From NCBI RefSeq assembly GCF_002113885.1, contig NW_018404373.1, positions 122,737-186,736 of the forward strand: a stretch of DNA of 64,000 nucleotides, given 5' to 3'. The translations under genes were made by a program, and so were the position numbers. This document shows positions 21,420-61,194 of this stretch, piece by piece (the first letter of the stretch is position 1; each line of letters opens with the position of its first letter). Below the pieces are notes generated by a model. That model saw only the letters and a program-made list of their open reading frames with translations. It had not been told where the DNA came from and searched no databases. The stretch comes from Mizuhopecten yessoensis (lineage: Eukaryota).

Positions 21420-21466
<47 letters not shown>

Positions 21467-21467: not shown

Positions 21468-21498
21468 ATTAAGATTAATTAAGTTTACCACATGTAGG

Positions 21499-21624
21499 TA
21501 TGTGGGATAGGGAAATTTCCCGAAGTCCTGCACAAGGGTGTAGAATTTTGGCTGAGAACTTTGTCAAAGCCTCGGTTCTGACCCACATTCTACAACCTCA
21601 GGAAGAATTTCCCTATCTCACATA
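21499..21624. repeat. ~125-bp inverted repeat (hairpin), probably a transposon end
   Basis: TATGTGGGATAGGGAAATT ... AATTTCCCTATCTCACATA (1 mismatch) plus inner GTAGAAT/ATTCTAC arms. Confidence 0.75.
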
Positions 21625-35509: not shown

Positions 35510-36690
35510 TGACAGGATATAATGGTGTATAAGGAGACCGTTGTATTGTGTAGGGGTTACATAGTATATTTGTTTTGTCAGGACAAGCACAAAAATGTCA
35601 GTTTGGTTGCCAGGTAACTGTACATAAACGATCAATAGCAAGTTTGGGAAATGACTTGCAGTGTTTGGAAACAAGAGAGACGTTATACTCGTATGTTGAT
35701 TGATGAACAACTTATACATGGTTCAAAAATCAATTTTTGAAAGAAAAAAAGGTCCGATTTTTTCCGATTTGCATATTAAAAATGACGCAAAAACCACAAA
35801 TCAACAAATCAATAAATGAAAGATATCATAACGATAATGTTTTAAAATGTTCATACCTCGACCCGAAAAAACCGTTCACCAATGATATCGGGATAGTACT
35901 ATGATGCTGCACCCAAAACGACTTTGATCAGTCCTTTATTATTATGACAATAAACTATATCTGTCTTACATCAATCTCAGACATTTGGTCACGTAGAACA
36001 ATTCTAGATGAGAAGTTGATTTTAAGGCATACGACATGTCACTCTGACCCCCCCAGTGGACAGATTTACTCAAACTTAAAACGACAAACAAGGTGACATT
36101 ATGAATTAGGAGTGTGCACGAGGGTATTATGTTTCTGCTTTGCTTGGTCTGTTCCTAAAGCAGAATACAAAACAATTGTCTAAAGTAAGACATTCTTTTA
36201 TTATAGAGCAGGCCGACTTTGTACCAGGTTCTCCCAAACTGTTCACACAGGCGATTGTAAACCAGCCTCTAAATATTTGTAAACACGAGATGTTTGCCTA
36301 ACTCGTACCTCAGACAAGACATCATAGCCCCAGACCTTGTTCGGATTGGTCTATCGCCTACACTTTGTCTGATATATCTACGCGCCATGTTTTTCTTACT
36401 TGTCCCATTGAACTATTCTCAGCAGACCCATGATCTGTATTTTTAAATTGTTTATGATTTTGATAATTCCATTTCTACAACTGTTTAGGTTTGGACAGGG
36501 TAAGATAGTGTATAGAAGAACACTGGATTGTGTAGAGGGTACATAGTACAATGTATATTTGTTTTGTCAGGACAATAAAAAAATGTCAAAGTTTGGTTGC
36601 CAGGTAACTGTACATAAACAATAATTAGCAAGTAAGGAAAATGACTTGCAGTGTTTGGAAACAATTGGGACATTAAACTAGTATGTTATT
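35510..36690. repeat. Pair of diverged ~190-bp direct repeats (35510-35700 and 36493-36690)
   Basis: Shared blocks GTATATTTGTTTTGTCAGGACAA, GTTTGGTTGCCAGGTAACTGTACATAAAC and AAATGACTTGCAGTGTTTGGAAACAA. Confidence 0.85.
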
Positions 36691-36767
36691 CTGAAAAAAA
36701 AGTTATATTAACTGAGGCAAAGGGACAAATCTGTTGTATTTTTATTAACCGTCACCAAATTTTGAAG

Positions 36768-37042
36768 TTGAGCGTTAATCAGAGAACAACAACTTCTATT
36801 GTTAAAGGAAGTTTGGTTTGCCTCATTCAGAGGACAAACCCATTAGCTGTTTCCTCGCCAAAAGGCCAAAGGCGAGGTATTGTCAAGTGAAGCATTAGGA
36901 AAATTATTCCGAGACCAAAATGTTGCAATCGATGCAGCAGATTGGTCTTGGTCGTTTTCCTGTCCCCATTTTGCAATTTTACAACATGCAGTAGGTAACA
37001 GCAGGTATATATTCGTTTCTCGATCCCCGACCTGAAAAGGAT
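36768..37042 (-). mobile_element. Old partial copy of the composite retroposon at 41709-42203
   Basis: Colinear similarity: TGAGCGTTAA..., AAAGGCCAAA.G.GAGG, CATTAGGAA, CATGCA.TAGG..CAGCAGGTA, CC.ACCTG. Confidence 0.65.
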
Positions 37043-38214
37043 GAGACTAAAAGCATTCAACAACAAGCGATAAACGATGAATAATACAGCACGTATTAAC
37101 TATTTATGTTCCCATCCCCTCCACACACGAGTACACACTTATTTATCCAGTTATTCTACAAGAGATAAATCATGTAAAATTAGAACGTTATGGTTCACAA
37201 TCCCCTGTGCCCGTATCTAGCTCATTACTTTGTCCCGACGACTCTATTGACACTCCTCAGATCGTGGAGATTTAAAGGGTTTACATTTACATAATTAGAG
37301 TAATAGTTACTGTGTACACATTCCGATAACGTCGCTAATTATAGCATTACTTTTGTATGTCTGTTACAAAGACCCCCTAAGCCTCAACGATAATACCGAC
37401 GACACAGCCACAGACAATTAATACTGCTACATCACTCAGTAAGAAACCTGTTTCACTGGTGCTCAACGTGTAATCATGTGTGTTTGAAAAGAAAAGAAAA
37501 ATGCTGACGAATTCATAAAGTTATGTCATTCTGATAAAAAAGAAAAATCATTTTGTTGAAGAGTACACAAACAGCCAGCGTATTCTAAAACGTGGGAAAA
37601 TGATAATTCTTCCTCACAGTTTTACAAAATATTTTTTTCTGGTAGGAATAGAAACATTTGATACCTTGAACGACACCAATACAAGTTACAAACAAAGGAA
37701 CACGCCAACCATTGTTTCACTAAAGCCATTGACGCTGAAGATAAACCAATTCACGTATACGATGAATCCGATAAACCGGTTTCACACGTGAAATTTCGAC
37801 CGTTTTATAGTTTACACAAACAAAATGGCCACCAAAATACAGATTTGGGAGCTATCTTGAAACATTTCTACAATACATCCCTACCTATGTTTTGAGGGTC
37901 AATCAATGCAATCTCCGACAAACAGTTTATGCGCCAGTTACTAGTGAAGTACATAATAGTTCGTGTGTCATTGCTCAATGCTTATTTTCCAACTTTACTC
38001 CAAAACACCTCTCGATGCTTATTCAGTAATGCCAGTGTCAATAGTCTCAATCATAGATGCCTTATCTTACGTCTAGCATAGAAGAAATTGTTTGCACACT
38101 GACTGTGCTTATACAATGTATAAAGAGTATGCCTATCAATCTGATACTGACATACACAGGTGTTTCCTTCGTCCGGTACTTCTAGTGATTATATTACGTC
38201 ACAAAATGAGGGAC

Positions 38215-39618
38215 TCTACTGGTGGACTATCAGTCCCAGAGATTGGCTGTAACCCTGTATCTACTGGTGGACTATCAGCCCCAGAGATTGGCTGTAACCC
38301 TGTATCTACTGGTGGACTACCAGTCCCAGATAATGGCTGTAACCTTGTATCTACTGGTGGGCTATCAGTCCCAGATAATGGCTGTAACCTTGTATCTACT
38401 GGTGGACTATCAGTCCCAGAGATTGGCTGTAACCTTGTTTCTACTGGTGGGCTATCAGTCCCAGACCTTAAATGACCATAGCTGTTGATAGGACGTTAAA
38501 CAATACTAAACCAAAACCTTGTAATTACGGGTGGACTCTTGTATCTACTGATGGGCTACCAGTCCCAGAGATGTGCTGGAACCTTGTATCTACTGGTGGA
38601 CTATCAGTCCTAGAGATTGGCTGTAACCTTGTATCTACTGGTGGACTATCAGTCCCAGAGATTGGCTGTAACCTTGTTTCTACTGGTGGGCTATCAGTCC
38701 TAGAGATTGGCTGTAACCTTGTATCTACTGGTGGACTATCAGTCCAAGAGATTGGCTGTAACCTTGTTTCTACTGGTGGACTATCAGTCCTAGAGATTGG
38801 CTGTAACCTTGTATCTACTGGTGGACTATCAGCCCCAGAGATTGGCTGGAACCTTGTATCTACTGGTGGGCTATCAGTCCTAGAGATTGGCTGGAACCTT
38901 GTATCTACTGGTGGACTATCAGTCCTAGAGCTTGGCTGTAACCTTGTATCTACTGGTGGACTATCAGTCCCAGATATAGGCTGTAACCTTGTATCTACTG
39001 GTGGACTATCAGTGCCAGAGATTGGCTGTAACCTTGTATCTACTGGTGGACTATCAGTCCAAGAGATTGGCTGTAACCTTGTTTCTACTGGTGGGCTATC
39101 AGTCCTAGAGATTGGCTGTAACCTTGTATCTACTGATGGGCTACCAGTCCCAGAGATGTGCTGGAACCTTGTATCTACTGGTGGACTATCAGTCCCAGAG
39201 ATTGGCTGTAACCTTGTTTCTACTTGTGGGCTATCAGTCCCAGAGATTGGCTGTAACCTTGTATCTTCTGGTGGACTATCAGTCCCAGAGATTGGCTGTA
39301 ACCTTTATCTTCTGGTGGGCTATAAGTCCCAGAGATTGGCTGTAACCTTTATCTTCTGGTGAACTAGCAGTCCCAGAGATTGGCTGTAACCTTGTATCTA
39401 CTGGTGGACTATCAGTCCCAGAGATTTGCTGTAACCTTGTATCTACTGGTGGACTATCAGTCCTAGAGATTGGCTGTAACCTTGTATCTACTGGTGGACT
39501 ATCAGTCCCAGAGATTGGCTGTATCCTTGTATCTACTGGTGGACTATCAGTCCCAGAGATTTGCTGTAACCTTGTATCTACTGGTGGGCTATCAGTCCCA
39601 GAGATTGGCTGTAACCTT
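38215..39618. repeat. Minisatellite, 45-bp unit, ~29 copies
   Basis: TCTACTGGTGGACTATCAGTCCCAGAGATTGGCTGTAACCTTGTA. Confidence 0.97.
38466..38516 (+). mobile_element. Isolated SINE 3' tail inserted in the 45-bp array
   Basis: CCTTAAATGACCATAGCTGTTGATAGGACGTTAAACAATACTAAACCAAA matches the tails at ~40492-40544 and ~41709-41766. Confidence 0.85.
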
Positions 39619-39782
39619 TTAGCTGGAATTAATCTGGTTTAAATGAAATATTAGATAAAGAGTAAATAATCTGTTGTATCCAATAGTTGTAAACGTAACC
39701 TCAAAAAGGGATGTATAGGCACCTCTCCTCGTACACAACATTTCTACGTGTTTCGGAACCCTTTAGTGACGGATTTCCTTTC

Positions 39783-40313
39783 TGTTGACCTTAAGTACCA
39801 CTGGTCAGTCCCGGGACGAAGTGAACATAATTATGGTACTGTTACCTTAAGTACCACTGGTCAGTCACGGGACGAAGTGACCATATGGTGTTGTTACCTT
39901 AAGTACTACTGGTCAGTTCCGGGACGAAGTGACCATATGGTGCTGTTACCTTAAGTAATACTGGTCAGTCCCGGGACGAAGGGAACATAATTATGGTACT
40001 GTTACCTTAAGTCCCACTGGTCAGTCCCGGGACGAAGGGAACATATGGTGCTGTTACCTTAAGTAATCCTGGTCAGTCCCGTGACGAAGTGACCATATGG
40101 TGCTGTTACCTTAAGTCCCACTGGTCAGTCCCGGGACGAAGGGAACATATGGTGCTGTTACCTTAAGTAATCCTGGTCAGTCCCGTGACGAAGTGACCAT
40201 ATGGTGCTGTTTCCTTAAGTAATACTGGTCAGTCCCGGGACGAAGGGAACATAATTATGGTACTGTTACCTTAAGTACCACTGGTCAGTCCCGGGACGAA
40301 GTGACCATATGGT
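39783..40313. repeat. Minisatellite, 52/56-bp unit, ~10 copies
   Basis: TGTTACCTTAAGTACCACTGGTCAGTCCCGGGACGAAGTGACCATATGGTGC. Confidence 0.96.
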
Positions 40314-40323
40314 TCGTATTTCA

Positions 40324-40544
40324 GGGGTCGCGGTGGCCGAGTGGTTAAGGCGTCTGAACGTCTTGATCGCTATAGTCCTCCGCCGCTGGGTCGCGGGTTC
40401 GATGCCTACGTTGGCAGTCGCTAGTGTCGCCGGGTACTGTCCGCGGGTCGGTGGTTTTTCTCCGGGAACTCCGGTTTTCCTCCATCAACGTCCTTAAATG
40501 ACCATAGCTGTTAATAGGACGTAAAACACAAACCATACCAAACC
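40324..40544 (+). mobile_element. Full-length tRNA-derived SINE with V-domain-like core
   Basis: A box TGGCCGAGTGG; B box GGTTCGATGCC; core GGTTTTTCTCCGGGAACTCCGGTTTTCCTCC; tail ending in AAACC-like repeats; probable TSD TTCGTATTTC/TTCATATTTC. Confidence 0.9.
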
Positions 40545-40934
40545 TTCATATTTCTAGTAATTATATTATGCAAACATTAGTGTGTGCATCGTAATACGAA
40601 TTCATGTATGGCAACAACACTTCATACAGTTCCTCTAGCATACTCAAGAAATCATTTCCGGGCATTTGTCTGATATAGGACTCATTGAGGTAAGTGAGGG
40701 CTGCAGTCATCTTGTTTCAATCCCCTGTCCATGTGTGTAGGAAGCTCGGGTACAGCACAGCGAGCATTTCCCCAAACCATTGCTTAGCATTGTACAAGCT
40801 TCGATATAAATCGGAGAACCTTACTTGTTTTTGACAATGATTTTAATTTCACAGACTTAAGTGATAAATGTCGATGCCTTGCTGCACTAAAATAATTTGA
40901 TTTTGTGCACATATGCAGACAAAAACATCAGTGT

Positions 40935-41025
40935 CCTTTTACGACATAACTTTAATAAACTAGCCTTTTACGACATAACTTAATAAACTAGCCTTTTACG
41001 ACATAACTTTAATAAACTAGCCTTA
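40935..41025. repeat. Short tandem repeat, ~29-bp unit, 3 copies
   Basis: CCTTTTACGACATAACTTTAATAAACTAG. Confidence 0.9.
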
Positions 41026-41708
41026 CACAGTATGTTACACGAACATATTGTCAGTTTCTATACATGTATGGCTCTTAGTTGTGTCAAATCGGTGATTACC
41101 ATTTTACTATCATACTTCCGGTTCATCTCTTTTCCTTCGGCAACTAACATAGCGTTGTCAAAACGTGACTGAAAACACAGTTCATCAGACAATAATTGCA
41201 AAATCGATTGTATCATAACATAGTGACAGGAAGATTTTCCATCGTCTAGGAACAAACTCATCACGACCTTCAACAAGATATCTGGTGGTCTAACCGCGTT
41301 TGTGTGTCTTGTACAATTTTGAAGCCTGTGGATATTGTCTGGTACGTCAAGAAACGGCTATAAAAACAAATGGTATGGTTTTTAACAACATGTAACGAAA
41401 TTTAGTAACACATTTGTTATCATTTCTTGCATTATTAGGGTTTGATACCACCAAAATTTTAGCATGGATAGTCTTCATAGAGCACCAACAATTGCTCGAA
41501 GTATTGGAATCTTTGAACTCACAAGAAGACGATTCGATTTTCAGAACCGCAGCATATGTATATAGAACATGACCAAGTTCTGATGAAGCAGCAAGGCATG
41601 TACTTTAATTATCAAGACTGGGAAACTATAGGAACAATGTCACCAACGAGCGATTCGCTTCGCTTCTATATGTCGCGCAAGGGTTTGGGGAAGTGCTCAC
41701 TTTGCAGT

Positions 41709-42203
41709 TTGGTTTGGTTTAGTTTAGTATTGTTTAACGTCCTATCAACAGCTATGGTCATTCAATGACGGCCTCCCCTGTGTGCAAGATGCATGTGTGT
41801 AGTGTATGCGCGTGTGTTTTGGGAGCGTGTGGAAATGATGCCGACTTCACAGTGCTACCTCACTGAAACATACTGCCGAAGACACCCAGCCGGTCACATT
41901 ATAATGACAACGGGCGAACCAGTCGTCCCACTTCTAAATTGCTGAGCGTTAAGCAGGAGTAGAAACTACCATATGTACAGACTCTGGTATGTCTCGGACA
42001 CTCCCAGGGGACAGAACCCAAAGCCTTCCTCACAGGGGCGAACGCTCAACTAAAGGCCAAAAGTGAGGCATTTTCAAGGGAGACATTAGGAAGAATAAAG
42101 TTGTTTAGAAAGAAGAGAAAAGATAAGATCCCAAATTAAGTCGACTCTTACGATCATGCAATAGGGGCAGCAGGTACAATTCTTACGCCCTACCTGCAGC
42201 GAC
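41709..42203 (-). mobile_element. Composite SINE-like retroposon: structured 5' leader, degenerate tRNA-like head, Meta-like core and shared tail
   Basis: Flanked by a 15-bp TSD TGCTCACTTTG(C/A)AGT; core GACTGGTTCGCCCGTTGTCATTATAATGTGACC...TTCAGTGAGGTAGCAC; same 3' tail as the V-type SINE. Confidence 0.8.
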
Positions 42204-43962
42204 TGCTCACTTTGAAGTATCTGACATGCAAACACAAGTCATTTTCGCTCCCGTTGTTACGATGTTATTGTGGAAATGGGTTCACGAATGGTCCAAATGT
42301 CACTAAGGCGGCCATTTTGTTGATGCAAATAAGACATTTAAATAAAGAAAAAGTCGCTTGGCAACCGCGTTTACCAAATTCAGCATATAAAAATACACAA
42401 AAACATCGACATCTTTCAAATGTTTCTATGAGTGAAAACTTTTCGGTAAAGTCTGGTTTAAAACACTGTAAGTTCTCTGTCGTTTTTTGAAATTCAATGG
42501 GCAGTGACAAAATCGACAAAAGATAAGCGAGAATATAGGGAGACGCTCATATTAGAAAATTTCGACCTTACAACTACAACATTACAAAATAAGGAGAGAA
42601 AAAATCAAGACATATACGTTTGCTAAGTTATAGTTTCCAATTTGAATTGAAGTTAAAGGCATGGATACAAGATTAGTTTCCGGAAAATGAAGTTTGGACC
42701 CTGGTTTGTTGAATTCCTGACATTTCCATTAAACGCTAGCCTGGTCGATAAGAGAGATCAAGAGGCACAGGAAGGTTCGGAAACTTGTGTTATATATTAT
42801 TTTACCTCAGATGTGTTCATATTAAGATAATTTAATTGTCAGAAAGTCATTGTTTATGGAGACTAAATACAACTAATACATAGTCGCCTACGTACACATC
42901 ACTGAGCAAAACGTCCGAATTTGTGAAGTTATCAGGTGAACGAGGCAGACAAACTATCTCGACCGTCTTCATTGTAAGCCTCCTATAAACAACACAGTTA
43001 GAGATAACGGTTAAGAAACGGTTCATAATTTAGATATGTAACAAATCATATGTTTATATATATAAAAAGACCAGCACAAGGCAAGTTTTTGTAGAAGAAT
43101 GTATACTGAAGGATTATAAGGCATTGATACCGTATACTTGTTGGGGCTTATATCTTATATAAAGACATAACTGTGGTGTTGATTTAGCCCCATGTATTGA
43201 CATACGAAAGAAATTGACATACTGATATCGGTTTTCTTTGTGCTCAAATCAAATAATGTCATTATCTGTTAAATTAGCAAGGTGAAATAAATCTACCCGA
43301 ATTTTTCAGAGTTTAACCTGAGTTTATTTTGACAAGTGGAGTAGCACATTATTAATATGGTGACTTTATGTTTGCGCCATAACAGCTGTCTCCTGACATT
43401 TTATTACATTTACTACCTCTGTATAACAGGCTTATCAAGAAATCGATTTCATGTCAGAAAGTGACAAGCCTCGTCAAGTAGGTGAAGAATTTGCGGTTGA
43501 CCTGTTTTCGAGTGCCGTTTAAATAACCCATCCAAATCGTCGTAATTATCGCCAAGTCGCTTCCCTGTATAATAAACTGTTCCACAATTAACTCGCATGG
43601 TCTAGCGAGCTCCCCGATTTTATCGTTAGTGGATCAAAGATATTTTTTTACCGCAATCATGCAAAATTATAGTGAATTGATTAAAAAGTGTTCTCTGTAC
43701 AATTACACTCATATTAATTTCACGACTCATCTCAGTATATAAGCCGTGCTGTTGTTGTCAAATGTGAATCTCAAGTTAAAGGATCCCACTGCCAAAAAAA
43801 GGGTAGCTTTAGGTATGGGAATCTGGTTTGTTTCTCGGTATAACTATAGCTTGTATATTGTGTTTCTCAAAAGAAAACCAGATCTTGCGGGATATTTATT
43901 AGAAATGATAAAAATGAACACAATGACGGTGTAGCTAAGTGTACACTTTCAGCGGGACAAGA

Positions 43963-44237
43963 CCCGGGCCCGTATTCATGACACTGTTCTTAGGCTCAAG
44001 CATGATCACTGTGTTTACGCCGGCTTTCTTGTAACCTGCTTTAATCATGTAACATGGACATAAAGTCGAATGTAAACACTGAAAACAGTAATCGGCTTAA
44101 CGTCTTTCAAAATTTCTTACATATCATCGACAAAATATGATATATTTTTTTTATTAATTTAACTGGCAAATTAAATTGGGCTTGAGCAAAGAACCTGAGT
44201 TTGAGCATGAGAACGGTTCCATGAATACAGGCCCGGG
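43963..44237. mobile_element. ~270-bp MITE with TIR GGGCCCGTATTCATG (superfamily uncertain, possibly Harbinger-like)
   Basis: CCCGGGCCCGTATTCATG ... CATGAATACAGGCCCGGG; inner GCTCAAGC/GCTTGAGC arms. Confidence 0.85.
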
Positions 44238-44310
44238 ATTCGAACTTTGGAGATCTGATTGTAGTGCTATCGCATCACCTCGTCAACAAAAGTGTCCAAC
44301 TGTCAAAACG

Positions 44311-44435
44311 GAAGTTAAGGGGAAGTTACTGTTTATAGGGAAAACACCGTGTATTGGGACAGGGATCCTTAAGGAAGTTAAGGGGAGGTTACTGTTTATA
44401 GGTAAAACACCGTGCAGTGGGACAGGGATCCTTAA
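44311..44435. repeat. Tandem duplication, ~62 bp, 2 copies
   Basis: GGAAGTTAAGGGGA.GTTACTGTTTATAGG.AAAACACCGTG.A.TGGGACAGGGATCCTTAA twice. Confidence 0.9.
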
Positions 44436-45396
44436 CTGATGAACATTTTCAACTACCTGACTTTTTCAATAAAAAATGTGTTTAAAGTTTCCAGTGATTA
44501 TTGCTGTTTCTATGGAGTTAACGTATAGTGATATAAAGAAATCCTGTTTAGAAAAAGAGCTTTCGAGCTTCTCTCATACAATTTCGTTTTTATGACTAAA
44601 GCATTTTTTTTGTAATAAACCATGTATTATAAACACGTTTGTAGCTAGACAAGTCAGTGTGTACCTTTGAAATGCACGGTTTTAATTATATAATACATCA
44701 GGTAACACCACCTAAGCACACTCTGCGTCATCTGAAGTGAAGATAAACATATATTTAACACCTGATTAGGTGAAGCTCGCGATCTCGGGAACAGTTATAT
44801 TTAAAGGATATGCATTCGGTCCTGACCAAGTGCGTCACGACCTTGAATAAGAGCAGCCTACCTGACAACATCAAAGCAAAGTGCTTTTTAGCCGACGAGG
44901 TGGGGCTGTGTTTACACCCGTTGATTAAGTGTACGGTTTGTGGTAATGATTCAGAACGTGATGTTCGTCGTGGGAACCGGGCATATCTCTATTTGTATCG
45001 TTTTTATGTTGTTTATTTGTTTTTCCTTTGTTCAAAGTGTTTTATTTCGATGATTCTTCAAGTGACAGTTATTAGCGCTGTTATTTCCGAGAGATGCACG
45101 TTATGGAAGCGATGTAATTAGCGCTGGTATTGCACAGCGATGTAATTAGCGCTGGTATCGCACAGCGATGTTTCTTGCAGAAACATGTTTACACCATTGT
45201 ACGTTATAAGTAACCAAGGTTATTTTCATAGCGTTTGTCTTGTGGAAACATGTACTCGCTATTAGTGTAAATATTTGGTATTGCATGCATTCAGTGGGAA
45301 ATTTACAAGATATTTAACATACATAACACAAGTTCAATGCCGAAATACTATTAAACCTAACATATTTACATGAGTATTAGTTCTATTTACTACACT

Positions 45397-45800
45397 GTTT
45401 GTTTATTTGTTTGTGTTTTACGTCCTATCAACAGCTATGGTCATGCATGCCCTCACCCGGGTGAGAAATCGTGTCGGGATGAGAAATCGTGTTGCGAACG
45501 TAGCAATTCTAGCACGATTTCACCGTTTAGTTTAACAACCTTGACTCCTCCGTGGTTACAGCTTTGGTTTGAAGGCAGATTGTTTTACATCATACCCATA
45601 GCGTCAGAAGTTATTACATAGTTTGCAGTTTGGTTAGAGGACGTGTCAGGTGGTGGTGGTGGAGGAAGCTCCCGGCGAAAAACAACCGACGGCCGGTACC
45701 TGGCGACTGCCCAACGTAGGTATCGAACCCGCGACCTAGTTGCGGAGGCTAGTGATAGCAGAATGTCAGACGCCTTAACCATTTGGCCACCGCGCCCACA
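45397..45800 (-). mobile_element. Second V-type tRNA SINE, interrupted by a ~190-bp insertion
   Basis: Reverse complement GGGCGCGGTGGCCAAATGGTTAAGGCGTCTGA...GGTTCGATACC; tail at 45397-45443; TACACT on both flanks. Confidence 0.85.
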
Positions 45801-46420
45801 TACACTATTGTAGTTTAGTGATTGCCAAAACCAATATCAAACCATTTTACTTTTACATAATTGTCTAATGCTAAGAGTTATCAAACATGAACTGCAATTA
45901 AGTATATACTTTGGTGAAATATGAATATGTTAAAAAATGAGATATAAACTTGTAAACAAAACCTTTTTCAAATTCACCTTTTTACCAAGGTATACCTTAC
46001 AATCTACATAGGAGACCGTGATTGTACTTCCATTTAGCAATAACAAGTGAGAGACGAACAACGTTAATTGCAGATGTTGACATAATTAATCGTTGCATTA
46101 AAGATTTCTTCGTGCACGTATTGACGCACGACGTCTCCACTACCTGTCAGCAACTGTCAAAAAATCCTTTACTGACACTTAAACATGATACAACCGTAAA
46201 TTATGTTTATCAGACGTATACAAACGTTCTGTTTTAGGAGAATCTTACTTCAGAAAAGAGACGTACACAAAATGAACCGACAGACGTTCTGGTAAGCTTT
46301 TGTTTAAATTCGATACACGTGTGAAAAGAACTAAGTAACCTCATCTAACGGATATACCTGTTCTTCACTCTTAATTTGGTCGTATGCCTCATTGATTCCA
46401 TTGTCAGTTAACACGAGGTT

Positions 46421-46650
46421 TCGTTTCCTAACTCCCATTTAAGTTGACACATATCTGTACAAGACACATACCATCAATATCAGTATTTCTAGGTCTCGTT
46501 TCCTAACTTCCATTTAAGTTGACACATATCTGTACAATACACATACCATCAATATCAGTATTTCTAGGTCTCGTTCCTAACTTCCATTTAAGTTGACACA
46601 TAACTGTACAATACATATACCATCAATTTCAGTATAACTAGGTCTCGTTC
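46421..46650. repeat. Tandem repeat, ~75-bp unit, 3 copies
   Basis: TCGTTTCCTAACT.CCATTTAAGTTGACACATA...CTAGGTC. Confidence 0.92.
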
Positions 46651-48844
46651 CCTGCTTCACATTGAAGAATTCTTTGGAAGTTTTTCTTTATGAAAATCTC
46701 TGATTGCCGCATATATTGATGCCTCCTGTCTTGATTCATGTAAACATTGTATATTTGTATGTCATACTTGGGTTATATGCATGTTTCTCATTTTGCTAAT
46801 TTTAACACGTGTTTTGGAACATTTAAGACACGTTTACGTTTTGTACCACAGAAGAGTACTAAATGTTGGCTGGCTGTATCGCCGGACTTGTCCATGCAGT
46901 TACTTCCTGATAACTATTTCTAGTGATTATGATACGACAGTGCTTTGTCACGTACTGCACATTAATGCAAACACATTTCAAAAACATTTATATTTTACTC
47001 CGATCATTAATATCGGACTTGGTATCATTTTTCAATACAGCATAATGCTAACGTGCGTGAATGGATCAAATGAATAAAACTCGTTTTCTCGAGAGATGAA
47101 ATACTAGACATTTAAACGTTCACACTTGAGCATTTTGTAATCTAAACATAGCATATAATTGTTTTGATAATTTGAAGGAGAAACACGTGACTGGAAACCA
47201 AATCCTGCTTTCGTGTTGTAGGCTCATCACACTTAAAACATTTGCTGACCTTATGTATGGATATCTTACCGTTTAAGGCAATACTTTAAAATCATATCTA
47301 TTATTATTTTCAATCGCATTGACAGTGGGTTTAATACGGAATGCATTAGTCATGGGGCTATCAAGATTTTGGCACCGACCATTTTCCCATACGTCCGCGG
47401 CCAAGTCTGGTACCGTATATACGTAGTGTATCTAATGTCGGTCGGGAGTGTGGGTGGAGGAAGGCGTAGGCCGTGTTTGTAAGGCTTTAGACAAAATCAC
47501 CCACGGCTATATGTTGTCTTTTGTAGGACACGTCCTCTCGTGTTTGTTGACAAAGAAATAGATGTACAAATATTGTTTACAAACAAATACAATTATTGAC
47601 TATCGAGCTGTTGAAAACTGATGCACTGTGTACCAGTTTGGTTACAAATATGAAATAGGAAAATGTCTTCCTCGTTTGTACTGTATTTGTATTGTTTTCT
47701 GGCCCGTTGACAATTTAAAGTCATATTGGTCCAAAAGTTCTCATTTTTGAACGATCTATGTATAAAAAGACTTTTAAGTTTTCTCTGAAAACGTAAATAT
47801 TGTGACGTCTGAGAAAAAGTAGTATTGCATTCATAAATTCCAAATATATACTTGTAAAACAGGCAGTGTCAGTTGTTTCAGGCCATACACTATCTTTAAC
47901 CTTCCCACCTTTTGTTCTTTTTATTATTCTTTATTAGTATTAGATTTTAAAGCATGCTATACAACCGGAAATTTACAAATTAAACGCTACGATATAAAGA
48001 TATTAACAAGTTCAGTGGACAGGACAGGTTATATTATAATTCCTCTCTAAGCCCCGAACAATCACCATCTTTTGTTTTTTCTGTATATAACTTTGATATA
48101 TGGGACAAGAAACTAATTGCACTAATACGAACCGATTGTTATATACATTTTTAGCTTCAAAAAACATTCGCGGCTATTGCTGAAACTGATACTGCGATAT
48201 TTCATGTAAAAAAATGTTTTTCGTTCATTTTATTTATTTATTTACCAAATTCTTAACGATAAAATGATACTTAAAAAAGTCCTTTTGTGTCTATTGCTGA
48301 AAATGACACTTTAATACTTCCTGTTAGCTATTATTGTAAGCTGATTGTATTTCCCTGCTTGTGTTTGTCTGTATACGCCTTGTGTTGTTTCTGCCCTTAC
48401 TTTGTCAGCTAAAAAGTACCTTGTTTTAGATGTAGAAACTCCCTTTAAAGCTTGTGTTCGAATTTAAACTGATACATTTATCAGGGTTCATTCTCGCACT
48501 AAGCCGTGTCGAGTACCTTGTACTACCTGTTCTCACGCTCGTACTTGGCATCCATTCATCAATTTAAGCGAATCGTCACTTCTCCGGCCAGTTTGGTCAA
48601 TACACATCTGGTCAACAACTCGTTAGAGTGACCAAGCGTGTGAATTACAGACGACTCAATCTAACATTATTACTGGATTACGGTTGATAATCCAATGCTG
48701 TTTGGCGGTTATAAGCCCCACATAACCCTAGTACATATTGACATAGATTATCCAAAATTAATTGGCAAACACTAAGTAGCCTCCGATCAGGGCAGGGTTT
48801 ACGTTTCTTCACGAACTACGAATCTAATGCTATGCTAATCATCA

Positions 48845-49815
48845 CAACTTACAAACATGCCTCTTAACCATATCAAGCAACAAAATTGCAACTTACAAAA
48901 CGGTCTCTTAAGAATACCAAGCATCAAAATTGCAACTTACAAACAGGTCTCTTAAGAATACCAAACATCAAAAATGCAACTTACAAAACGGTCTCTTAAG
49001 AATACCAAGCATCAAAATTCCACTTACAAACAGGTCTCTTAAGAATACCAAGCATCAGAAATGCAACTTACAAACAGGTATCTTAAGAATACCAAGCATC
49101 AAAAATGCAACTTACAAAACGGTCTCTTAAGAATACCAATCATCAAAATTGCAACTTACAAACAGGTCTGTTAAGAATACCAAGCATCAAAAATGCAACT
49201 TACAAACAGGTCTGTTAAGAATACCAAGCATCAAAATTGCAACTTACAAACAGGTATCTTAAGAATACCAAGCATCAAAAATGCAACGTACAAACAGGTC
49301 TCTTAAGAATACCAAGCATCAAAAATGCAACTTACAAACAGGTCTCTTAAGAATACCAAACATCAGAAATGCAACTTACAAAACGGTCTCTTAAGAATAC
49401 CAAGCATCAAAAATGCAACTTACAAAACGGTCTCTTAAGAATACCAAACATCAAAAATGCAACTTACAAACAGGTCTCTTAAGAATACCAAGCATCAAAA
49501 ATGCAACTAACAAAACGATCTCTTAAGAATACCAAGCATCAAAAATGCAACTTACAAACAGGTCTGTTAGGAATACCAAGCATCAAAAATGCAACTTACA
49601 AAACGGTCTCTTAAGAATACCAAACATCCAAAATGCAACTTACAAACAGGTCTCTTAACAATACCAAGCATCAAAAATGCAACTAACAAAACGATCGCTT
49701 AAGAATACCAAGCATCAAAAATGCAAATTACAAAACGGTCTCTTAAGAATACCAAGCAACAAAAATGCAACTTACAAAACGGTCTCTTAAGAATACCAAA
49801 CATCAAAAATGCAAA
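48845..49815. repeat. Minisatellite, 44-bp unit, ~22 copies
   Basis: TTAAGAATACCAAGCATCAAAAATGCAACTTACAAACAGGTCTC. Confidence 0.97.
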
Positions 49816-51512
49816 ATGCACCTTGAGATTGTAAGTAGCGTTGATTAAGATAAACCTTTGTTATTGACAAATGATACAACACACATATGGGAGTACATTA
49901 TATCCTACTCAGCAGTATTACTTTTACGTAGGTGTGCCTTGTCTATTATACAACTATTAGAGTGTATTTTCGCCGACCCCAATACAACTCCTACTGAATG
50001 CTTTACATACCGTCGATACATTATTGATCGGGTAATGATCAGCGATCGATGATTTACCTACAAATCGAAGGCCATAACGTATTGATCTGTGAATACCTGT
50101 AGTGTATACCTTTAATGTTCATTCTATCAACTGCCCTTCAGTAATTGTAACATACCTATTTTACTAAACTATTCCGGGTATGTCAAACTATACTAGTCAC
50201 TGACGTCACACACAAACATAATTCCTTGTCCGACATTTATTCGTATACAATCGTATTTTCTATTGTTGTTTGAACAATTGCTTCTGTCTTGTCATCGTAA
50301 GTAAACAAAGAGCTCTCCAAACGATCTGGAATTCCCAATAGAGTTGTTTTTAAACTAGTAGTCATCGGGAAATAATTTTGCCTTGTTTGGTTTGGCACCG
50401 CGGTAGCTCATTCACACAGCTGAAATCGATATCGATTCGCGATTGGAATAACCAGAAGATATCTCTGGACTTAACCATTCATGAAATCCTATATGATTTT
50501 AATAATATATAAACGTTGACCTTACAAAACTGACCCCCCTCCCCTAAAAACTATCTTTAACAATGAATTTGACATATTGAAAGCAAACTTTCACACGGAA
50601 TAAATAACGATTTTATTTTGCCGTTATTTGTCTTTGTTATTTGAGTTTTTTAAGTCAAAATAAGCTATATGCGTCCCTGTGTGAATGGCGGATACGTGTA
50701 CGCATTTATCTTAATAATACTATTTTAGTTAAACTTCAAATTTGTTTTGGTGCTTTATCATTTGTCAGCCAAACATAACACCACTTGGAGCTAAAACGAA
50801 CTGAAACGTGCAACCATGGGATGTTTTTATCAAGAATACTGACAGTTCGTACCCAGCTATCATCTTGATATCCGACACTGCGTTTAGGTCGCATTTATAG
50901 ACATACAAGTACACAAGCAGTCTAAATGTAAGTATTTCTGATGGCAGAGAAACATTGACCTTTCGACCCTGTACAAATGACTCGATCCCTAACGGTACGC
51001 CTTCTTACCCAGACTTAATCACCAATTTATTATAGCATTGTGGTGACAAACACGCCTTGTTACAACGTTAAAGCTACAACAAATGTGTTACACAATTAAG
51101 TTGGTAATGTCCACCCGACATACAAATATATACCGGACTGTTCCACTACGTCACATAGTCCAATGTCAATTACATGATCATTTAAATAAATACCTGTCCA
51201 CCCTCACACCTTTATAGAGCCGACGGATGACCTCTACCTGGCTAGTTTACAGGTATGTTCAGGTATTATACCCCAGAGGAAGTAGATAATTGTAATAATG
51301 GACACTTAACCCACTTAACAATCAAATTCGTTCTTGATGTTTGGATTCTCGCTATAAGATTGTTTTTACATTACAGCGGGAAGGAGGGTTAAGTAGGTCA
51401 TTTCGACTTTGTCCCTTAATAAGGCAATCTCCTTAACACCCAACACAAATAACAAATCTTGTCAACGACGACGAACCAGATCAACGAGAAGCAACTCATC
51501 CTCAATACTCCT

Positions 51513-51779
51513 GGGCCCGTATTCATGGAACATTTCTCATGCTCAAGCACATATTCTGAACTCAAACAAACTTTCTTATAACTCGATTTAATCATGTTAA
51601 ACGATCAAAAAGTCAAATGAAAATACTAAAAACAGTATTCGGCCTTAAGTCTCTTAATTGTTTTTTGAAAACATTGAAAAAAATAAGATTTTTGTATCAA
51701 TTTGTAACCAGAACAAGATATTAGGCTAGAGCATAAAACCCGTGCTTGAGCATGATAATGGTGTCATGAATACGAGCCC
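51513..51779. mobile_element. MITE of the same family as 43963-44237
   Basis: GGGCCCGTATTCATG ... CATGAATACGAGCCC; similar interior. Confidence 0.85.
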
Positions 51780-51953
51780 GGGGTTACGCTCACTTACGCT
51801 CTCTTCTGCGGAAAGCGTAAGTTAGTGTAACCTATATGAGATATTTCTGCGGAGAGCGTAAGTGAGTGAAGCCTATGAGATATTTCTGTGGAGAGCGTAA
51901 GTGAGTGTAACCTATGAGATATTTCTACGGAGAGCGTAAGCAAGTGTAGCCCC
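51780..51953. mobile_element. Small TIR element with a tandemly amplified right TIR
   Basis: GGGGTTACGCTCACTTACGCTCTC ... GAGAGCGTAAGCAAGTGTAGCCCC; four ~40-bp units each carry the right TIR. Confidence 0.7.
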
Positions 51954-52265
51954 TGGTATATTGAGGATGGAAGCGATCATATAAACATATTTTTAATGAC
52001 ACAGTTTTTATGCTTTGTAGTTATAGTAACTGATGCATCTTCTAAACAATTTGTTCTCGTTAACAATATTTTACTGTGTTCTAGTCATATTCCTCTTTAA
52101 AAATCACAGGTTTAATCGGCACAACTCAGACAGGACAATTTGTAGAAAGTCATGAAAACTATGAAATGCGTTTCCAATATTATTATTTCTCGATGACAGA
52201 TTTTAATTAACGTTTCACTATTAGAGGCTCTATTTAGGGAACAACAAGATACAGTTCAGATTGGT

Positions 52266-53555
52266 TGCAACCCTGTACACAACAGTACAACACGAACTTA
52301 AAGGCCTTACTGGGACAGTGACACTGCTGTCAGTGCGGAACGTTACAACCCTGTACATAACAGTACAACACAAACTTAAAGGCCTTGCTGAGACCCTGCT
52401 GTTAGTGTGGAACGTTACAACCCTGTACATATCAGTACAACACCAACGTAAAGGCCTTGCTGAGACACCGCTGTTAGTGTGGCACGTTACAACCCTGTAC
52501 ATAACAGTACACCACAAACGTAACGGCCTTGCTGAGACCCTGCTGTTGGTGTGGAACGTTACAACCCTGTACATAACAGTACACCACCAACGTAAAGGCC
52601 TTGCTGAGACAGTAACACTACTGTTAGTGTGGAACGTTACAACCCTGTACATAACAGTACAACACCAACGTAAAGGCCTTGCTGAGACACTGCTGTTAGT
52701 GTGGCACGTTACAACCCTGTACATAACAGTACAACACAAACGTAACGGCCTTGCTGAGACACCGCTGTTAGTGTGGAACGTTACAACCCTGTACATAACA
52801 GTACAGCACCAACGTAAAGGCCTTGCTGAGACAGTAACACTGCTGTTAGTGTGGAACGTTACAACCCTGTACATAACAGAACAACACAAACTTAAAGGCC
52901 TTGCTGAGACCGTAACACTGCTGTTGGTAAGGAACGTTACACCCCTGTACATAACAGTACAACACAAACTTAAAGGCCTTGCTGAGACCGTAACACTGCT
53001 GTTGGTAAGGAACGTTACAACCCTGTACATAACAGTACAACACAAACTTAAAGGCCTTGCTGAGACACCGCTGTTAGTGTGGAACGTTACAACCCTGTAC
53101 ATAACAGTACAACACCAACGTAAAGGCCTTGCTGAGACACTGCTGTTAGTGTGGCACGTTACAACCCTGTACATAACAGTACAACACAAACTTAAAGGCC
53201 TTGCTGGGACCGTAACACTGCTGTTAGTGTGGAACGTTACAGCCCTGTACATAACAGTACAACACAAACGTAACGGCCTTGCTGAGACCGTAACACTGCT
53301 GTTATTGTGGAACGTTACAACCCTGTACATAACAGTACAACACCAACGTAAAGGCCTTGCTGGGACAGTGACACTGCTGTTAGTGTGGAACGTTACAACC
53401 CTGTACATAACAGTACAACACAAATGTAACGGCCTTGCTGAGACCGTAACACTGCTGTTATTGTGGAACGTTACAACACTGTACATAACAGTACAACACA
53501 AACGTAACAGCCTTGCTGAGACCGTAACACTGCTGTTAGTGTGGAACGTTACAAC
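52266..53555. repeat. Minisatellite, 69/75-bp unit, ~18 copies
   Basis: GTTACAACCCTGTACATAACAGTACAACACAAACTTAAAGGCCTTGCTGAGAC(AGTAAC)ACTGCTGTTAGTGTGGAAC. Confidence 0.97.
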
Positions 53556-54279
53556 GTTATGACGAAGAAAACTATATATGGTGTTGACAACGGACAATAA
53601 CCACAGTACCAATCCTGGGACAACTCCCACTTTGTCTACGCTTACAACACATCTAGACAAGGTTTCAAACTTCAACTAGCAAAAAAATACAAACACAAAA
53701 AAATTGTTACAACCGTCGTAGTGTTAGCTAGCTAGGTGCACGGATACATTACAGATGTCGGTAACATGAGCGTACCTTCTATATTAGTGAAAATTCAATA
53801 AACCAAACTTGATGTGTTATCCACCGGCAATTGCCTAAAATATCTATACTAACACTAGGCTTATTTTCATATTTAGTAAGGGATCCCAGACTTATTTTCA
53901 AGGCAGTCACATTTTCAAGTCCTTCCTTTTTCGCTGGGATATTATGATATGCAGGTTTTATCGAAATTAAATTTTTTTTTTTTTTTGTCTTTAATCAAAT
54001 TGTTGCAATAATAAATAATGTAATGAGATAGTTAACTGTAAATACTGTTTAGGCCGAAAGAGAAAATGCAGATCCTGTCTTCATTCCATGGTGTGCTTTC
54101 AAGACTTTCAGTGACGGCTTATTATCAAAATATGTTTGACTGTAAGGCTGATTTCTATTTTCAAATCAGGTTTATTGTCGAGATAATAGGGTAATGGTCG
54201 GATACGTAACTGTGTCTCTCTACCATCAGTATCTTTTCATTGCGTTCCCTTGATATTTCTGGCTAGCCTTTTACCAGAT

Positions 54280-54449
54280 ATAAAAAGTGAACCGGAAGTG
54301 ATGTCGTGTTCTATGTCCTCTGTGTGATGTGCGTGAGATGTGTGACAGTTCAGTGAGGCAGCACTATAAAGCAACTCCCATATCCGTTACAGCATTCGTT
54401 ACGGTAGTGAAGCGGACGTAAAACCTATCAATCAATAAATCAATCAATC
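54280..54449 (+). mobile_element. Decayed Meta-type SINE, 3' half
   Basis: TTCAGTGAGGCAGCACTATAAA core; GGACGTAAAAC followed by a (TCAA)n tail. Confidence 0.6.
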
Positions 54450-54537
54450 GCCACAGCATAAGTAGACTGTCTGGCCTTATGCGGCGAGGTGAAGATGTTA
54501 AACACTAACACAATTCCGGTACACGTCGTTTTCGAAA

Positions 54538-54541
<4 letters not shown>

Positions 54542-54600
<59 letters not shown>
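54542..54600. repeat. (TC)n microsatellite
   Basis: Read directly. Confidence 0.98.
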
Positions 54601-54602
<2 letters not shown>

Positions 54603-57600
54603 CCAGTCACTTTAATCTGACAGCGGACGAACAGGAGGTGTCTAGGGAGGTACAGCAGAAATAAATGAGTAGTTAGGGGAGATAAGAAATCATACAGGTC
54701 TTTGGTTGGCAATGGGGGCTGTAGATCAGTTTTGACGCGGAAGAAAAATCCCAATTTTGCATGATGTCTCATTTTATAGTCTCATACAAACACACACGCA
54801 GAGGACGAAACAGGTCTGATTGGCATCGAATTGACAGGTTATTAAATGAATCTGTGGTACTGTATTCATGACTCTTTAAACTGAAAAAGAATTATTTAAT
54901 GAAGCATGGTGATCTGTGTAAGCAGGCCAGACTGGAATTGTTCAATTTCATGTACATGCGTGCAATTCCTTTATGTAAACTCCTCAGTACTTTGTGCAAC
55001 AGAAAAATAGCAAAACTGACATCTACGGTGGTGTTACCAATCTTCAAGCAATGAGACAACCAAGTCTAATGGTCCCAAACATTCGACGACCATTTTATCG
55101 GCTATATGGTTAACTGTACGAACCACTCATTGTAAAACATACCCCAACTAGTACTATATGATAACCATTGAAGAAAAGTATATCTCTGTACTTATCGATA
55201 TTTTAACTCAACTAAATTTAAGAGTATCAGAGATATTCTGAAGTAAAATTATCTGGTCTACTCAAAATAACAACAGAAGCCGATTTTGACTTAATCAATC
55301 TCATTTGCCACGGAAGAGTTTACCAGAGTAAATCAATTTCCCGCACCATTTGACTACCTGTGTATGTTATTGCAGAACGCCAATGGGGTTAGTATATCGT
55401 TGAATATAGCATATATTTTTTGGTTCCCTATCGCTCGTGTACATAGGAAGTGTCAGTAGTTTTATATACATTCTGATATACAGGGGTTAATACTGGACAG
55501 CTAAGGTAGGGACAAAGATCCCTTACCTTTCAGTAATCACCGTTAATGAGCATAAAAACGCCAGTGTCATAACAACGAATTACATTACTCCGTCATGTAC
55601 AGCCATATAACGCGCGATAATGTACCGTAGACTTGAAGTGATAATTAGAAAGTTGGGTAATATACCTGTCAAACAAAACAATGTAAGGAACATGAAACAT
55701 CAGCGCTGATTAAATACATTTACTGACAGAATCGTATAGATATCCATAAAAAGTTGGGAGAAACACAGCCCAATGTTTCGTGACGTTTATTGTCTACCTG
55801 AGACAGATGACTTTCTTTTGTAAAGCATGTTTCAATCTACAGAGGATTTTGTTTAAGATGAATACCTGTACTGCTAGATAAATTATCTTTCTGTACGCTC
55901 CACTGCCAGAACTTTCTGACGCGGTGCAATGAATTAATGTCTTTTGTTGTGGTGAGACTGTTGTTATTGCATCGCTGAATGCTAGTATTACGTGCAGAAA
56001 TATATTTCAATTTCTACTTAAATAAGACTCATTGAAACTGCCAACCGTTGTTTGTTTCAGTAACCCAGGAAATTGACCAGACTAACAAACATTGCCTGTG
56101 CACATCAATTAGTGTGTTATCTAACAACACACTGTCGGTAATTATCCGCCACAACAATAGAAAGTGTTTGGTGTTTTCACTGAAATAAGCAATGCTGCCA
56201 ATTAAATATTCATACTATGCGTTGTGCAATGAAAATATTTGCATTAAGAATGTTGACCTATATTACACGTCTCTGCAATGACGGAAACCCTACATTTTAA
56301 CATGAAAATTACGCGTTGACTTGTACAAGATTCATGCAGTATATTGTGTGCTTAATTGGGAGTATATTCATACAAAATTTGAAATATAACGACTGGATAT
56401 TGCTTTGGTCACTATCATAGATTGATAATGAATTAAGTTGGTATTGGGCCATTCAACATCGACGTTCATTGAATGTGGCGCAAAACCTACCGTCATTTCA
56501 TCACTTCATGAAATCTACAAAAGAAAGATTCAATCCTCAATAATTTATTGCAATTTAGATAATTTCTGAATGTGTGTTTGTCTGATGCATTGAACCACAA
56601 ATGGTTGCCGAATTCACTTGTAGTGCAACGCCGTTGATCAACGTAAATACAATTATCGAGCGACAATTTAATTGAATACTTTTTGTTTGACTAAACAAGG
56701 TGTCCCTATACATTGTATACTTAATTGGTTTGTTTCATCAGAGACGTATAATACGTCTATGGTTTCATCATTCATTAGCGCACAGAAATATAATACATAC
56801 TTTTGTCATTTCTAATTTCGATGAATACTCTTTTTGTGTTAGCTTTGAAAGGATTTGTTTAAAACATTTCAAGTGACATTAAATTGTCAATAGTCAATTT
56901 AAACTTAAACAAAATACTGGGTCACACAGGTACACGTAAATACCTGTATTAGATAGCACGAGAATGCTGTCCCTATCATCAAATCTTATTCGTAAGCTAC
57001 TAATTAGATGGAGGTGTACGTATCGGGTTTTAACGATAGACGGGTCGTGCGCCCGCGTTGTTAAGTACCGGTCCGGACACAAGTGGGGCGTGTCCGATAC
57101 CATCAGGAGAACAATCAGATCTAGATATAGTATATCGGCTAGCTAGTTGTACCCTACATAAAGAATTCGGTGTCCGGGCAGGACATTGTCCGCGACGCTG
57201 TCCTATGCTATACAGAGTTATGTGATACTGTATCAGGGGCGTTTATTAGGTCCCTGGTGATAAATCTGTGTCGACCTTTACATATATATTTCATTAGACG
57301 ATGTCAAAACGCTTTATATATTATTGGTCCAAAGTATCATATGGAAATAAAGAATATCTTGATACGAAAAAAATAATAACAATATGGTTAGTTTAGTTGA
57401 TCAAACTGGGTGAACTTTAATAATAAAACCATTATCATCTGGATCTTATCATACGGTATTTAAATACACAGGCTATGTCTCAGATATAAAATAATGAAAC
57501 CTAATGCGATATCAAACCATGCACGCGGTATTTCAATTAAATTCGGTGTAATGGGCCAAACAGTGTTGTGATGATTTAGCAAAATTCGGTTATTTGAAAC

Positions 57601-58240
57601 TGATGTTTCCATACAATCATATTAAATAATAGGACCTAGTTAGTCTAACAAAAGTATTTGCACTTAAAAAAACCAGAACTCAGAATGTAAATAAGCCTGA
57701 AATATCACTAACTGTAAAACCATCGCCTTCAGCTTTTCATGGCGTTCTTTCACGATGAAAACCGTTTTTCCGCTTCCGTGGCGACTTTACGCCATTTCGC
57801 TTTCGCTTTTCAACGTAAAAAGACTAACAAATTGAAAAAAAAATCAAAATAAAACTAATTGGATCCCATAGTTCTTCTGTTAAACTGAAAATACATATCA
57901 TTATGTAGTTACTGGCCTTTTTCTGATTCTAAACATCCTCACTGTCGCTTTTTTACGCTAGCACCCTACTGAGACTATTTCAGTTCAGGAAAAACAAGGA
58001 CCATATAACCTCACACTTGTGAGATATACATGTCTTTGTAAAGAAGGGTATATATGTCATTACATGCCATCATTAGTGTCATTATAAGGAAATGTACTAG
58101 TTATTATCATTGTAAGAAATCGGTTTTATATTGGAAATCTACATTATCGTTGTTGCCATTATAAGGAAATGAACAATTTATTTTCATTGTAAGAAATCGG
58201 TTTTATATTGGAAATCGACATATCATTATAGTCAGTAAAA

Positions 58241-58530
58241 GGTTCGTTCGTATAGAGTTTAACGCCATCATAAGAGCTAATGTCATATGAGGACGGGTGT
58301 CTGGGGAGACACTGCCAACACGGAAGGCGTATACGCGTACATGTAGGGCTGTGAGAAAAGTAAATATATAGATTCCAATTTTTGCAATAAGCACAGGATA
58401 TCAATTTCGGTTTCTTCAGTCCTCTTAGCAGAAAACGCTGAAGAAAATCCCCGATTCTGCAGATGGGAAGATAATTCGCCTCGATGTTGTAGGCGAGCAG
58501 GCTTAAACTTTCCCCGAACCTGCACGGGGA
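58241..58530 (-). mobile_element. Related SINE-like retroposon with structured 5' leader and diverged shared tail
   Basis: On the + strand GTTTAACGCCATCATAAGAGCTAATGTCATATGAGGACGG resembles GTTTAACGTCCTATCAACAGCTATGGTCATTTAAGGACG; its 5' end resembles the 42203 and 37042 ends. Confidence 0.55.
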
Positions 58531-60690: not shown

Positions 60691-61194
60691 GTATCTTTGC
60701 TAACCTGTAACGAACACGATCTAGAACCCTAGATTACGATGAAATAAACTTCAAACATTCACTGTAATGACGAAAATATTTCAAAGTGATAATGAAAACC
60801 CTTTTACTGTCATTTTCACATTGAGCGATTTGTTACAAATATACATTACAATAATACGAAGAGCCCCATTCAAACATTTCCTAACTTGCACTATACGTGT
60901 ACATGGTGCTTTTGTTCGACTGTAAATCATCGAAATTATGTACTTGACAAGTGTGTTCTGATAACGATAAATTCTGTCCGAGTTAAGGAATCGATGCCCT
61001 TTATGATTAGAATCGCTGTTTTAATTGAATTGGTCATTCTCGATAAAAGGAGGTCAAAGTACAATAAAGTCCACGAATACTATAGTTGCATGATTGCTCC
61101 GATCCCACTACCCCTTTGTACGACCTAACAAGCACAGGGCATTGACCACCTCGTCAACGGCAGTAATACAATAGGTGGATAACGGTACAGATCA

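Follow-up and report, generated by a model that had tools for sequence, protein, structure and literature searches.

A pseudoknotted RNA module at the 5′ end of scallop retroposons and in unrelated viruses

Ribozymes resembling that of hepatitis delta virus (HDV) are found at the 5′ ends of R2, RTE and Ingi/L1Tc retroelements, and their folds have been proposed to shield those ends (PMC11331408). Another 5′ sequence was described by Matetovici et al. (2016, PMC4758252), who reported that the scallop short interspersed element (SINE) MESC carries a 68-nt head resembling the 5′ end of Nimb-17_LMi, and that the same head occurs in I-3_DR, in RTE-9_CPB and in SINEs of gastropods, oysters and fruit flies; this class was named LP-SINE, and a promoter role was proposed for its head, in parallel with the trypanosome Pr77 promoter/ribozyme. 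Exoribonuclease-resistant RNAs (xrRNAs), which stall Xrn1 without the help of proteins and are defined by a ring of ~15 nt around the 5′ end, have been described from viruses, and finding them in cellular RNA has been named an open goal (PMC8374639). Here we analyzed 64,000 nt of Mizuhopecten yessoensis contig NW_018404373.1 (positions 122,737 to 186,736; hereafter the window), in which an earlier note, made from the sequence alone, had proposed that three retroposon copies on the minus strand begin with the same H-type RNA pseudoknot. We found that the pseudoknot belongs to a module of ~75 nt, supported by compensatory change among homologues, which is present at the start of SINE-like elements and of long interspersed elements (LINEs), and also in six viruses.

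A covarying pseudoknot in three retroposon families

The three sites begin at positions 42203, 37042 and 58530, and all of the strings quoted for them were recovered there on the minus strand. They had been taken for three diverged copies of one element; they are genuine heads of SINE-like elements, but of three separate families (A, B and C, respectively). BLAST comparison within the window joined A and B by 41 nt of body only and joined C to neither. Searches of the same genome (G000), in which each site proved to head a family of its own, gave at least 42 matches for family A (40 of 3778 first-look candidates were scored), 40 for family B and 46 for family C, and a pattern spanning the head had 955 exact matches, as compared to 0 for its reversed control. 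Thirty aligned family-A copies have in common a fixed start, a CT-rich linker, the body, the tail and target-site duplications (TSDs). A metagenome scan with the hairpin side only returned at least 121 stretches from several diverged animal repeat families, most of them from one assembly.

The module consists of P1 (3–5 bp), a U, the 7-nt 5′ strand of a second stem (S2), the 3′ strand of P1, an optional inserted hairpin and AGAAT, followed by the 3′ strand of S2, YGU, the helix P3, an internal loop and the P4 hairpin. In a plain MAFFT alignment (A3) of 14 representatives, whose rows were picked once the pairing was already known, each of the seven S2 pairs has changes in both strands, and pairing is kept in 94.9% of cells; the S2 covariation score was reached by none of 500 shuffles, and sliding abolished the signal. 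P1 was paired in 83.9% of cells. Pairs were counted on A3 because a model-fitted alignment (A2) misplaced the viral S2 columns. As a control, a swap test was run on 173 instances that were anchored by sequence only and fell into 34 clusters. An S2 score of 6 was reached with the cluster's own strand in 17 of the 34, versus 5.7% with swapped strands, and none of 100,000 permutations matched this result; the misses were mostly single truncated or decayed copies, with the medoids of the largest cluster and of two small ones at 5.0–5.5. This compensatory change supports an H-type pseudoknot, in which a hairpin loop is paired with a downstream strand.

The loop pairing proposed in the earlier note therefore holds, in a longer register: a 7-bp stem, GCAGGTA/TACCTGC in family A. 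Two other details did not survive the comparison. Stem 1 was said to differ in sequence and still pair, but the odd pairs that it has in A and B reflect decayed CCC(C)/GGG(G) rather than covariation, and the TCGCCT...AGGCGA hairpin of the 58530 copy is specific to that copy, its 5′ arm aligning to the segment after the pseudoknot, with the conserved loop deleted. The covarying helix P3, which surrounds the P4 hairpin, had been overlooked. A loose description of the pseudoknot had 12 matches in the window; simulated windows had a mean of 2.2, and 41 of 100 had at least three. By itself this description is weak and not significant, and the support comes from the homologues. Among structures that we set aside, a minor additional pairing between the internal loop and the YGU behind S2 looked inconsistent from family to family by eye, and minimum-energy folding of single copies gave other nested folds by a method that cannot show pseudoknots. 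Model R1, in which P3 and P4 were out of register, was replaced by R2, built from 20 retroposon heads only. The matches of R2 in the window are exactly the three sites: 42127–42204 (55.7 bits, a copy that belongs to the R2 training set), 36960–37042 (E 0.003) and 58473–58530 (E 0.018), the next match having an E value of 1.3.

Judged from its sequence, element A is the pectinoid MESC LP-SINE described in 2016, which points to a pectinoid-type bivalve as the host. Its head is near-identical to rows of Supplementary Figure S2 of that paper, where a CT-rich stretch also follows, and by eye it agrees with the supplement in its MESC body, in the tail held in common, in ending with a tandem repeat, in having variable TSDs and in its length (~520 nt) (PMC4758252). 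Thus, the published LP-SINE head with Nimb-17 homology is the same sequence in the same element, a ~70-nt head on a ~520-nt SINE with TSDs; that paper reads the head as a promoter, whereas we read it as a pseudoknotted RNA. The word "pseudoknot" is absent from its main text, and viral copies are unreported in its section 10 and the first half of its section 9. The earlier note had suggested an RTE link and a possibly uncharacterised module. RTE is indeed among the published carriers, but as one of three LINE carriers, two being Nimb; as for novelty, the sequence had been published as the LP-SINE/Nimb-17 head (PMC4758252), and what stands is that no Rfam family was matched. Rfam gave no relevant match in the window or in 20 loci. 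Our literature searches, outside the scope of which were Repbase, Dfam and most subscription papers, found no publication on this fold or on its viral copies. The sequence is thus known, and the structure, which comparative evidence indicates to be real, is apparently undescribed.

To locate the module relative to the element boundary, we used TSDs. In the full-length family-A copy at 41709–42203, the structure begins at the TSD-defined 5′ boundary, as the earlier note had stated: the 15-bp 5′ TSD (42204–42218) differs by one mismatch from the 3′ copy (41694–41708) and ends at 42204. Among 38 family-A copies with a tail, 26 had a TSD call, and in 23 of these the TSD ended 3–6 nt before the loop U, so that the element starts 0–3 nt before P1; three of four calls in family B agree with the same start. 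Bases further upstream are random, and the two or three leading bases are family-specific. Together with the covariation, these positions bear out the proposal of a conserved structured 5′ module at the element start. RNA-seq reads from three random-primed, unstranded runs of one study, ~18–19% of each being searched, cover the family-A element and at its boundary run on into varied flanks, as read-through transcription requires.

Families B and C have two tandem units each. The inner unit is without P4, contains the inserted hairpin and one compensated S2 pair, and keeps six of seven S2 pairs in 14 of 24 distinct rows. Tandem units are also present in loci L132 and L218 and in virus L251. Elsewhere, a family-A SINE without the pseudoknot part was seen inserted in open reading frame 2 (ORF2) of a LINE (L427:5960–6450).

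Homologous LINEs and viral copies

An APE-type LINE that begins inside the module was found on CAYREN010000493.1 (L387). This animal-type LINE lies in a contig of a bacterial metagenome bin, which is probably eukaryotic contamination. A search with its endonuclease led to a family of young LINEs in G000 whose ORF2 is 1222 aa long (APE, reverse transcriptase and RNase H) and whose tail is like that of element A; identity to L387 is 37% for ORF1 and 39% for ORF2, and three blocks of the 5′ untranslated region (UTR) are collinear. These homologous LINEs start with the module in L387 and L199, and with an HDV-like fold at the same position in four of six G000 copies, according to an HDV descriptor of our own; the two misses carry single P2 substitutions. 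The same descriptor matched none of 12 pseudoknot-head regions, which together with the Rfam result upholds the earlier statement that the module is not HDV-like. Rfam does not detect the HDV-like LINE head in G000. From the literature (PMC4758252, PMC11481361) and the domain layout, we infer that these LINEs belong to Nimb.

The young LINE family with a predicted HDV-like ribozyme start (G000:C942:1489004 onward, L423:1505–1630; also L419, L420 and L424) has many intact copies of the 1222-aa ORF2, and two 5′-UTR/ORF1 variants with one common ORF2. At L426:1380–1600, the HDV-like head of a LINE copy is replaced by a tRNA-like sequence with a duplicated UTR block, joined to the 5′ end.

The 16-nt hairpin pattern is held by 27 viral records, seven of which, from six viruses, are full-length R2 matches with E values of at most 0.002; the other 20 have a partial match, an E value above 0.05 or no R2 match. 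The carriers are Hubei tombus-like virus 21, Shuangao toti-like virus, invertebrate iridescent virus 6 (IIV-6), a contig with a tombus-like RNA-dependent RNA polymerase, a contig with a tetravirus-type capsid (two records) and a 6.1-kb contig with a capsid. The module of the five RNA viruses is in the coding sense and follows the last stop codon at a distance of 7–102 nt. Each of the six viral clusters has its own S2 sequence and keeps 6–7 pairs. Because RNA viruses have no DNA stage, this indicates that the constraint acts on RNA. Virus L251 has a second module copy, cut off by the contig end; its large ORF has no Pfam or PDB match, so that its status as an RNA virus rests on the capsid domain. 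The IIV-6 copy (L382:3955–4029), whose P3 is off register, is located between the same-strand genes 206R and 209R, 144 nt upstream of an ATG, where it could mark the end or the start of a transcript. Loci L384, L386 and L388 match the hairpin only and were rejected as chance. When the loci were scanned with R2, L361–L380 and L514–L552 being outside the scan, no further virus was among the matches listed, and the matches listed for loose viral patterns were mostly DNA-phage noise.

Possible roles of the module

The reading that we favor, with a probability of roughly 0.4, is that the module blocks 5′-to-3′ exoribonucleases and in this way sets where the element starts; we observe the fold, its position, its exchange with an HDV-like fold in homologous LINEs and its distribution, and we infer any activity. 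SINE-like elements mobilised by LINEs would be transcribed inside longer host RNAs. In these, the AGAAT linker would pack on P1 and the invariant P4 arm would dock back, bracing the 5′ end, so that Xrn1 or Xrn2 would stall at the module and leave an RNA that is cut back to a fixed 5′ end and shielded there. Starting from the shared 3′ tail, the LINE protein would then copy this RNA; in viral RNAs, such a block would protect a 3′ fragment. A nuclease block would explain both positions of the module, flush with the 5′ end of retroelements and behind the viral stop codon, as well as its tandem copies; tandem xrRNAs are known, for example in flaviviruses (PMC8374639). A portable function at the RNA level also fits the fact that the carriers have unrelated polymerases. 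The exchange with an HDV-like fold in homologous LINEs is a further point in favor, HDV folds having been proposed as shields of retroelement 5′ ends (PMC11331408).

Several observations weigh against a nuclease block or do not bear it out. Pseudoknots of the plain frameshift type fail to stall Xrn1 (PMC10321173), so a tertiary brace would be needed. In the three RNA-seq runs, molecule starts did not pile up at the head; random-primed libraries map 5′ ends poorly, and this result speaks neither for nor against processing. The loci had been chosen for having the head, so that their counts are silent on the rate of 5′ truncation. In the viral contigs, the module starts 89–184 nt from the end, so that, if these ends are complete, there is little RNA behind it to shield, and two patterns for an autonomous LINE with a pseudoknot head had 0 matches in G000. 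Within the module, only 10 of 17 representatives (with differing sequences) and two of six viral ones have P3 in register, P4 is paired in 96.4% of cells of the 14 representatives but without covariation, and the ~25 near-invariant nucleotides would suit a protein site or catalytic core no less well.

The predicted module has none of the layouts of HDV, pistol and hammerhead ribozymes or of class 1–3 xrRNAs. For a putative likeness to the dicistrovirus internal ribosome entry site pseudoknot, the Rfam comparison was negative. Flavivirus class 1 and 2 xrRNAs have a three-way junction closed by the 5′ strand, which is absent from the covarying model of the module. In class 3 xrRNAs (Tombusviridae/Solemoviridae, ST9a; PMC12397905, PMC8374639), a hairpin loop is likewise paired to a 3′ strand, and the position is a viral 3′-UTR. 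However, these RNAs are described with stacked P1 and P2 and a T-loop (L2B) (PMC12397905), whereas the module has a single P1 of 3–5 bp and a loop of U plus seven bases that is fully used by S2, and is followed by the invariant P3/P4 arm. The coremin xrRNA is also short, sequence-conserved and portable among unrelated viruses, including tombus-like and double-stranded RNA viruses, but is composed of a 4-bp hairpin with a YGAD loop, a spacer and a second hairpin (PMC10520033), a layout absent from the module. Leaving the mechanism aside, we think it on balance probable that the module represents a new class of RNA element that defines ends autonomously, either by resisting exonucleases or by cleaving itself, which is common to LINEs and SINEs of animals, to one DNA virus and to unrelated RNA viruses, and is interchangeable with HDV-like ribozymes at the 5′ ends of retrotransposons.

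Self-cleavage would be the other way to define an end. A new ribozyme class that cuts just 5′ of P1, freeing the element from read-through RNA, is unlikely in our estimation, though consistent with the module standing in for an HDV-like fold in homologous LINEs and with its high invariant content. The HDV-like ribozymes of R2, RTE and Ingi/L1Tc occupy the same 5′ position, probably for the same purpose (PMC5786205, PMC11331408), but have a nested P1-P2-P3-L3-P1.1-P4 arrangement with a C in J4/2, and the module is without the P2/P3/L3/P1.1 nesting. Pistol and pseudoknot hammerhead ribozymes likewise have a scaffold of a 5′ hairpin, a loop engaged in a 6–7-bp pseudoknot and an A-rich linker (PMC11300833). 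They place a substrate helix and a catalytic loop between linker and pseudoknot strand, whereas the module has neither, the 3′ strand of S2 following 1–2 nt after AGAAT. The IIV-6 copy would suit a cutting function in that it lies between same-strand genes of a virus whose transcripts are described as non-polyadenylated (PMC5923455). Against cleavage, the would-be cut site has no conserved base, no known core was recognized (the CUGANGA motif, which marks hammerheads along with G12, was in 0 of 19 cases, in addition to the HDV and Rfam negatives above), and a cut in linear RNA viruses would presumably separate the 3′ end from the coding region.

We have similar doubts about a cap-independent translation or ribosome-binding element, which would act as a 3′ enhancer in viruses, aid initiation in LINE 5′-UTRs and bring SINEs near nascent LINE protein. 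The 3′-UTR position in tombus-like viruses, the location of the IIV-6 copy ahead of an ATG and the invariant loops, which suit a conserved host factor, all agree with such a role. Such 3′ enhancers occur in tombusvirids, and Alu is able to bind ribosomes. The head is also described as able to substitute for the tRNA heads of SINEs (PMC4758252). By contrast, a translation role leaves unexplained the flush 5′-end position in non-coding SINEs, as well as the loss of P4 in the inner tandem unit and its retention in the 5′-most unit, and no Rfam translation element was matched, viral loci included.

Rather improbable is the 2016 proposal that the head is an internal DNA promoter of LINE origin, or the reading that it is a binding site for the element's own proteins, the RNA fold being secondary. 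The 5′-terminal position is in keeping with this published hypothesis (PMC4758252, section 10), and a dual role is conceivable, since the trypanosome Pr77 head is given there as both promoter and ribozyme. However, the S2 sequence is free to vary as long as pairing is kept, and the full module is present in RNA viruses with unrelated polymerases. Finally, it is very improbable that the viral copies are chance matches or remnants of captured retroposons, with the fold of importance in retroelements only: four of the seven viral records score only 25–29 bits and P3 is irregular in four of six viruses, but all six viral clusters retain S2 pairing with sequences of their own, five viruses share sense and 3′-UTR place, and the other 20 hairpin-bearing records reach only partial matches or E>0.05.

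If nuclease-resistant, the module would be a genome-encoded xrRNA of the sort that the field seeks. It bears on how retroelements that lack a promoter or depend on read-through obtain exact 5′ ends without a ribozyme. If true, a nuclease block and self-cleavage alike would supply a portable RNA part of small size; the efficiency of retrotransposon-based gene insertion is reported to be limited by 5′ modules (PMC11331408).

The window copies and neighboring repeats

All three copies in the window are decayed and lie on the minus strand. The family-A element (41709–42203; ~500 nt), delimited from the 30-copy alignment and the published MESC alignment, comprises the structured head, the CT-rich linker, the MESC body, a LINE-like tail and a (CCAAA)n end. 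Its predicted H-type pseudoknot, based on sequence and on covariation in homologues, spans 42170–42203: P1 pairs 42201–42199 with 42190–42188, one pair being broken, the loop U is at 42198, and S2 pairs 42197–42191 with 42176–42170, with AGAAT as the linker. The P3 helix, the conserved internal loop and the near-invariant P4 hairpin follow at 42130–42169, P4 itself being at 42155–42140 with one loop base changed.

The family-B head (36960–37042), defined by R2, 29 homologous loci and alignment to L081, keeps its pseudoknot strands with the first S2 base changed. It has lost the P4 hairpin altogether, together with the start of the second tandem unit, as revealed by the L081 alignment. The remaining fragment (36740–36959) contains a remnant of the second unit and the body start, 83% identical over 41 nt to the element A body, and pairwise alignment did not reveal a 3′ tail. 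A 200-nt direct duplication (80%; 36505–36707 and 35522–35716, minus strand) lies just downstream of it.

In the family-C head (58473–58530; R2 and alignment to L051 and L032), P1 and the seven-pair S2 are intact and P3/P4 are partly deleted, these deletions having created the copy-specific hairpin. The rest of the element (58243–58472) holds a degenerate second tandem unit, a CT-rich stretch and a LINE-like tail; overall it is ~285 nt long and lies inside a short tandem repeat, with no clear TSD. At 54600–54770 (minus strand) there is also a degenerate fragment that is similar to the tail and second tandem unit of family C.

Two SINE copies with a tRNA-like head and the element A tail lie at 40326–40545 (plus strand) and 45414–45797 (minus strand; with an internal insertion), and ARAGORN called no tRNA in them. 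An isolated SINE tail (38468–38515, plus strand) is next to a 45-bp minisatellite array. At 28823–28888 there is a near-perfect 29-bp inverted repeat with an 8-nt spacer, for which Rfam gave only weak scores to microRNA families. Minisatellites with ~26–78-bp units form over a dozen arrays, in the spans 7194–15614, 20071–23524, 29651–31874, 38110–39726, 48707–49929, 52171–53514 and 61157–63430.

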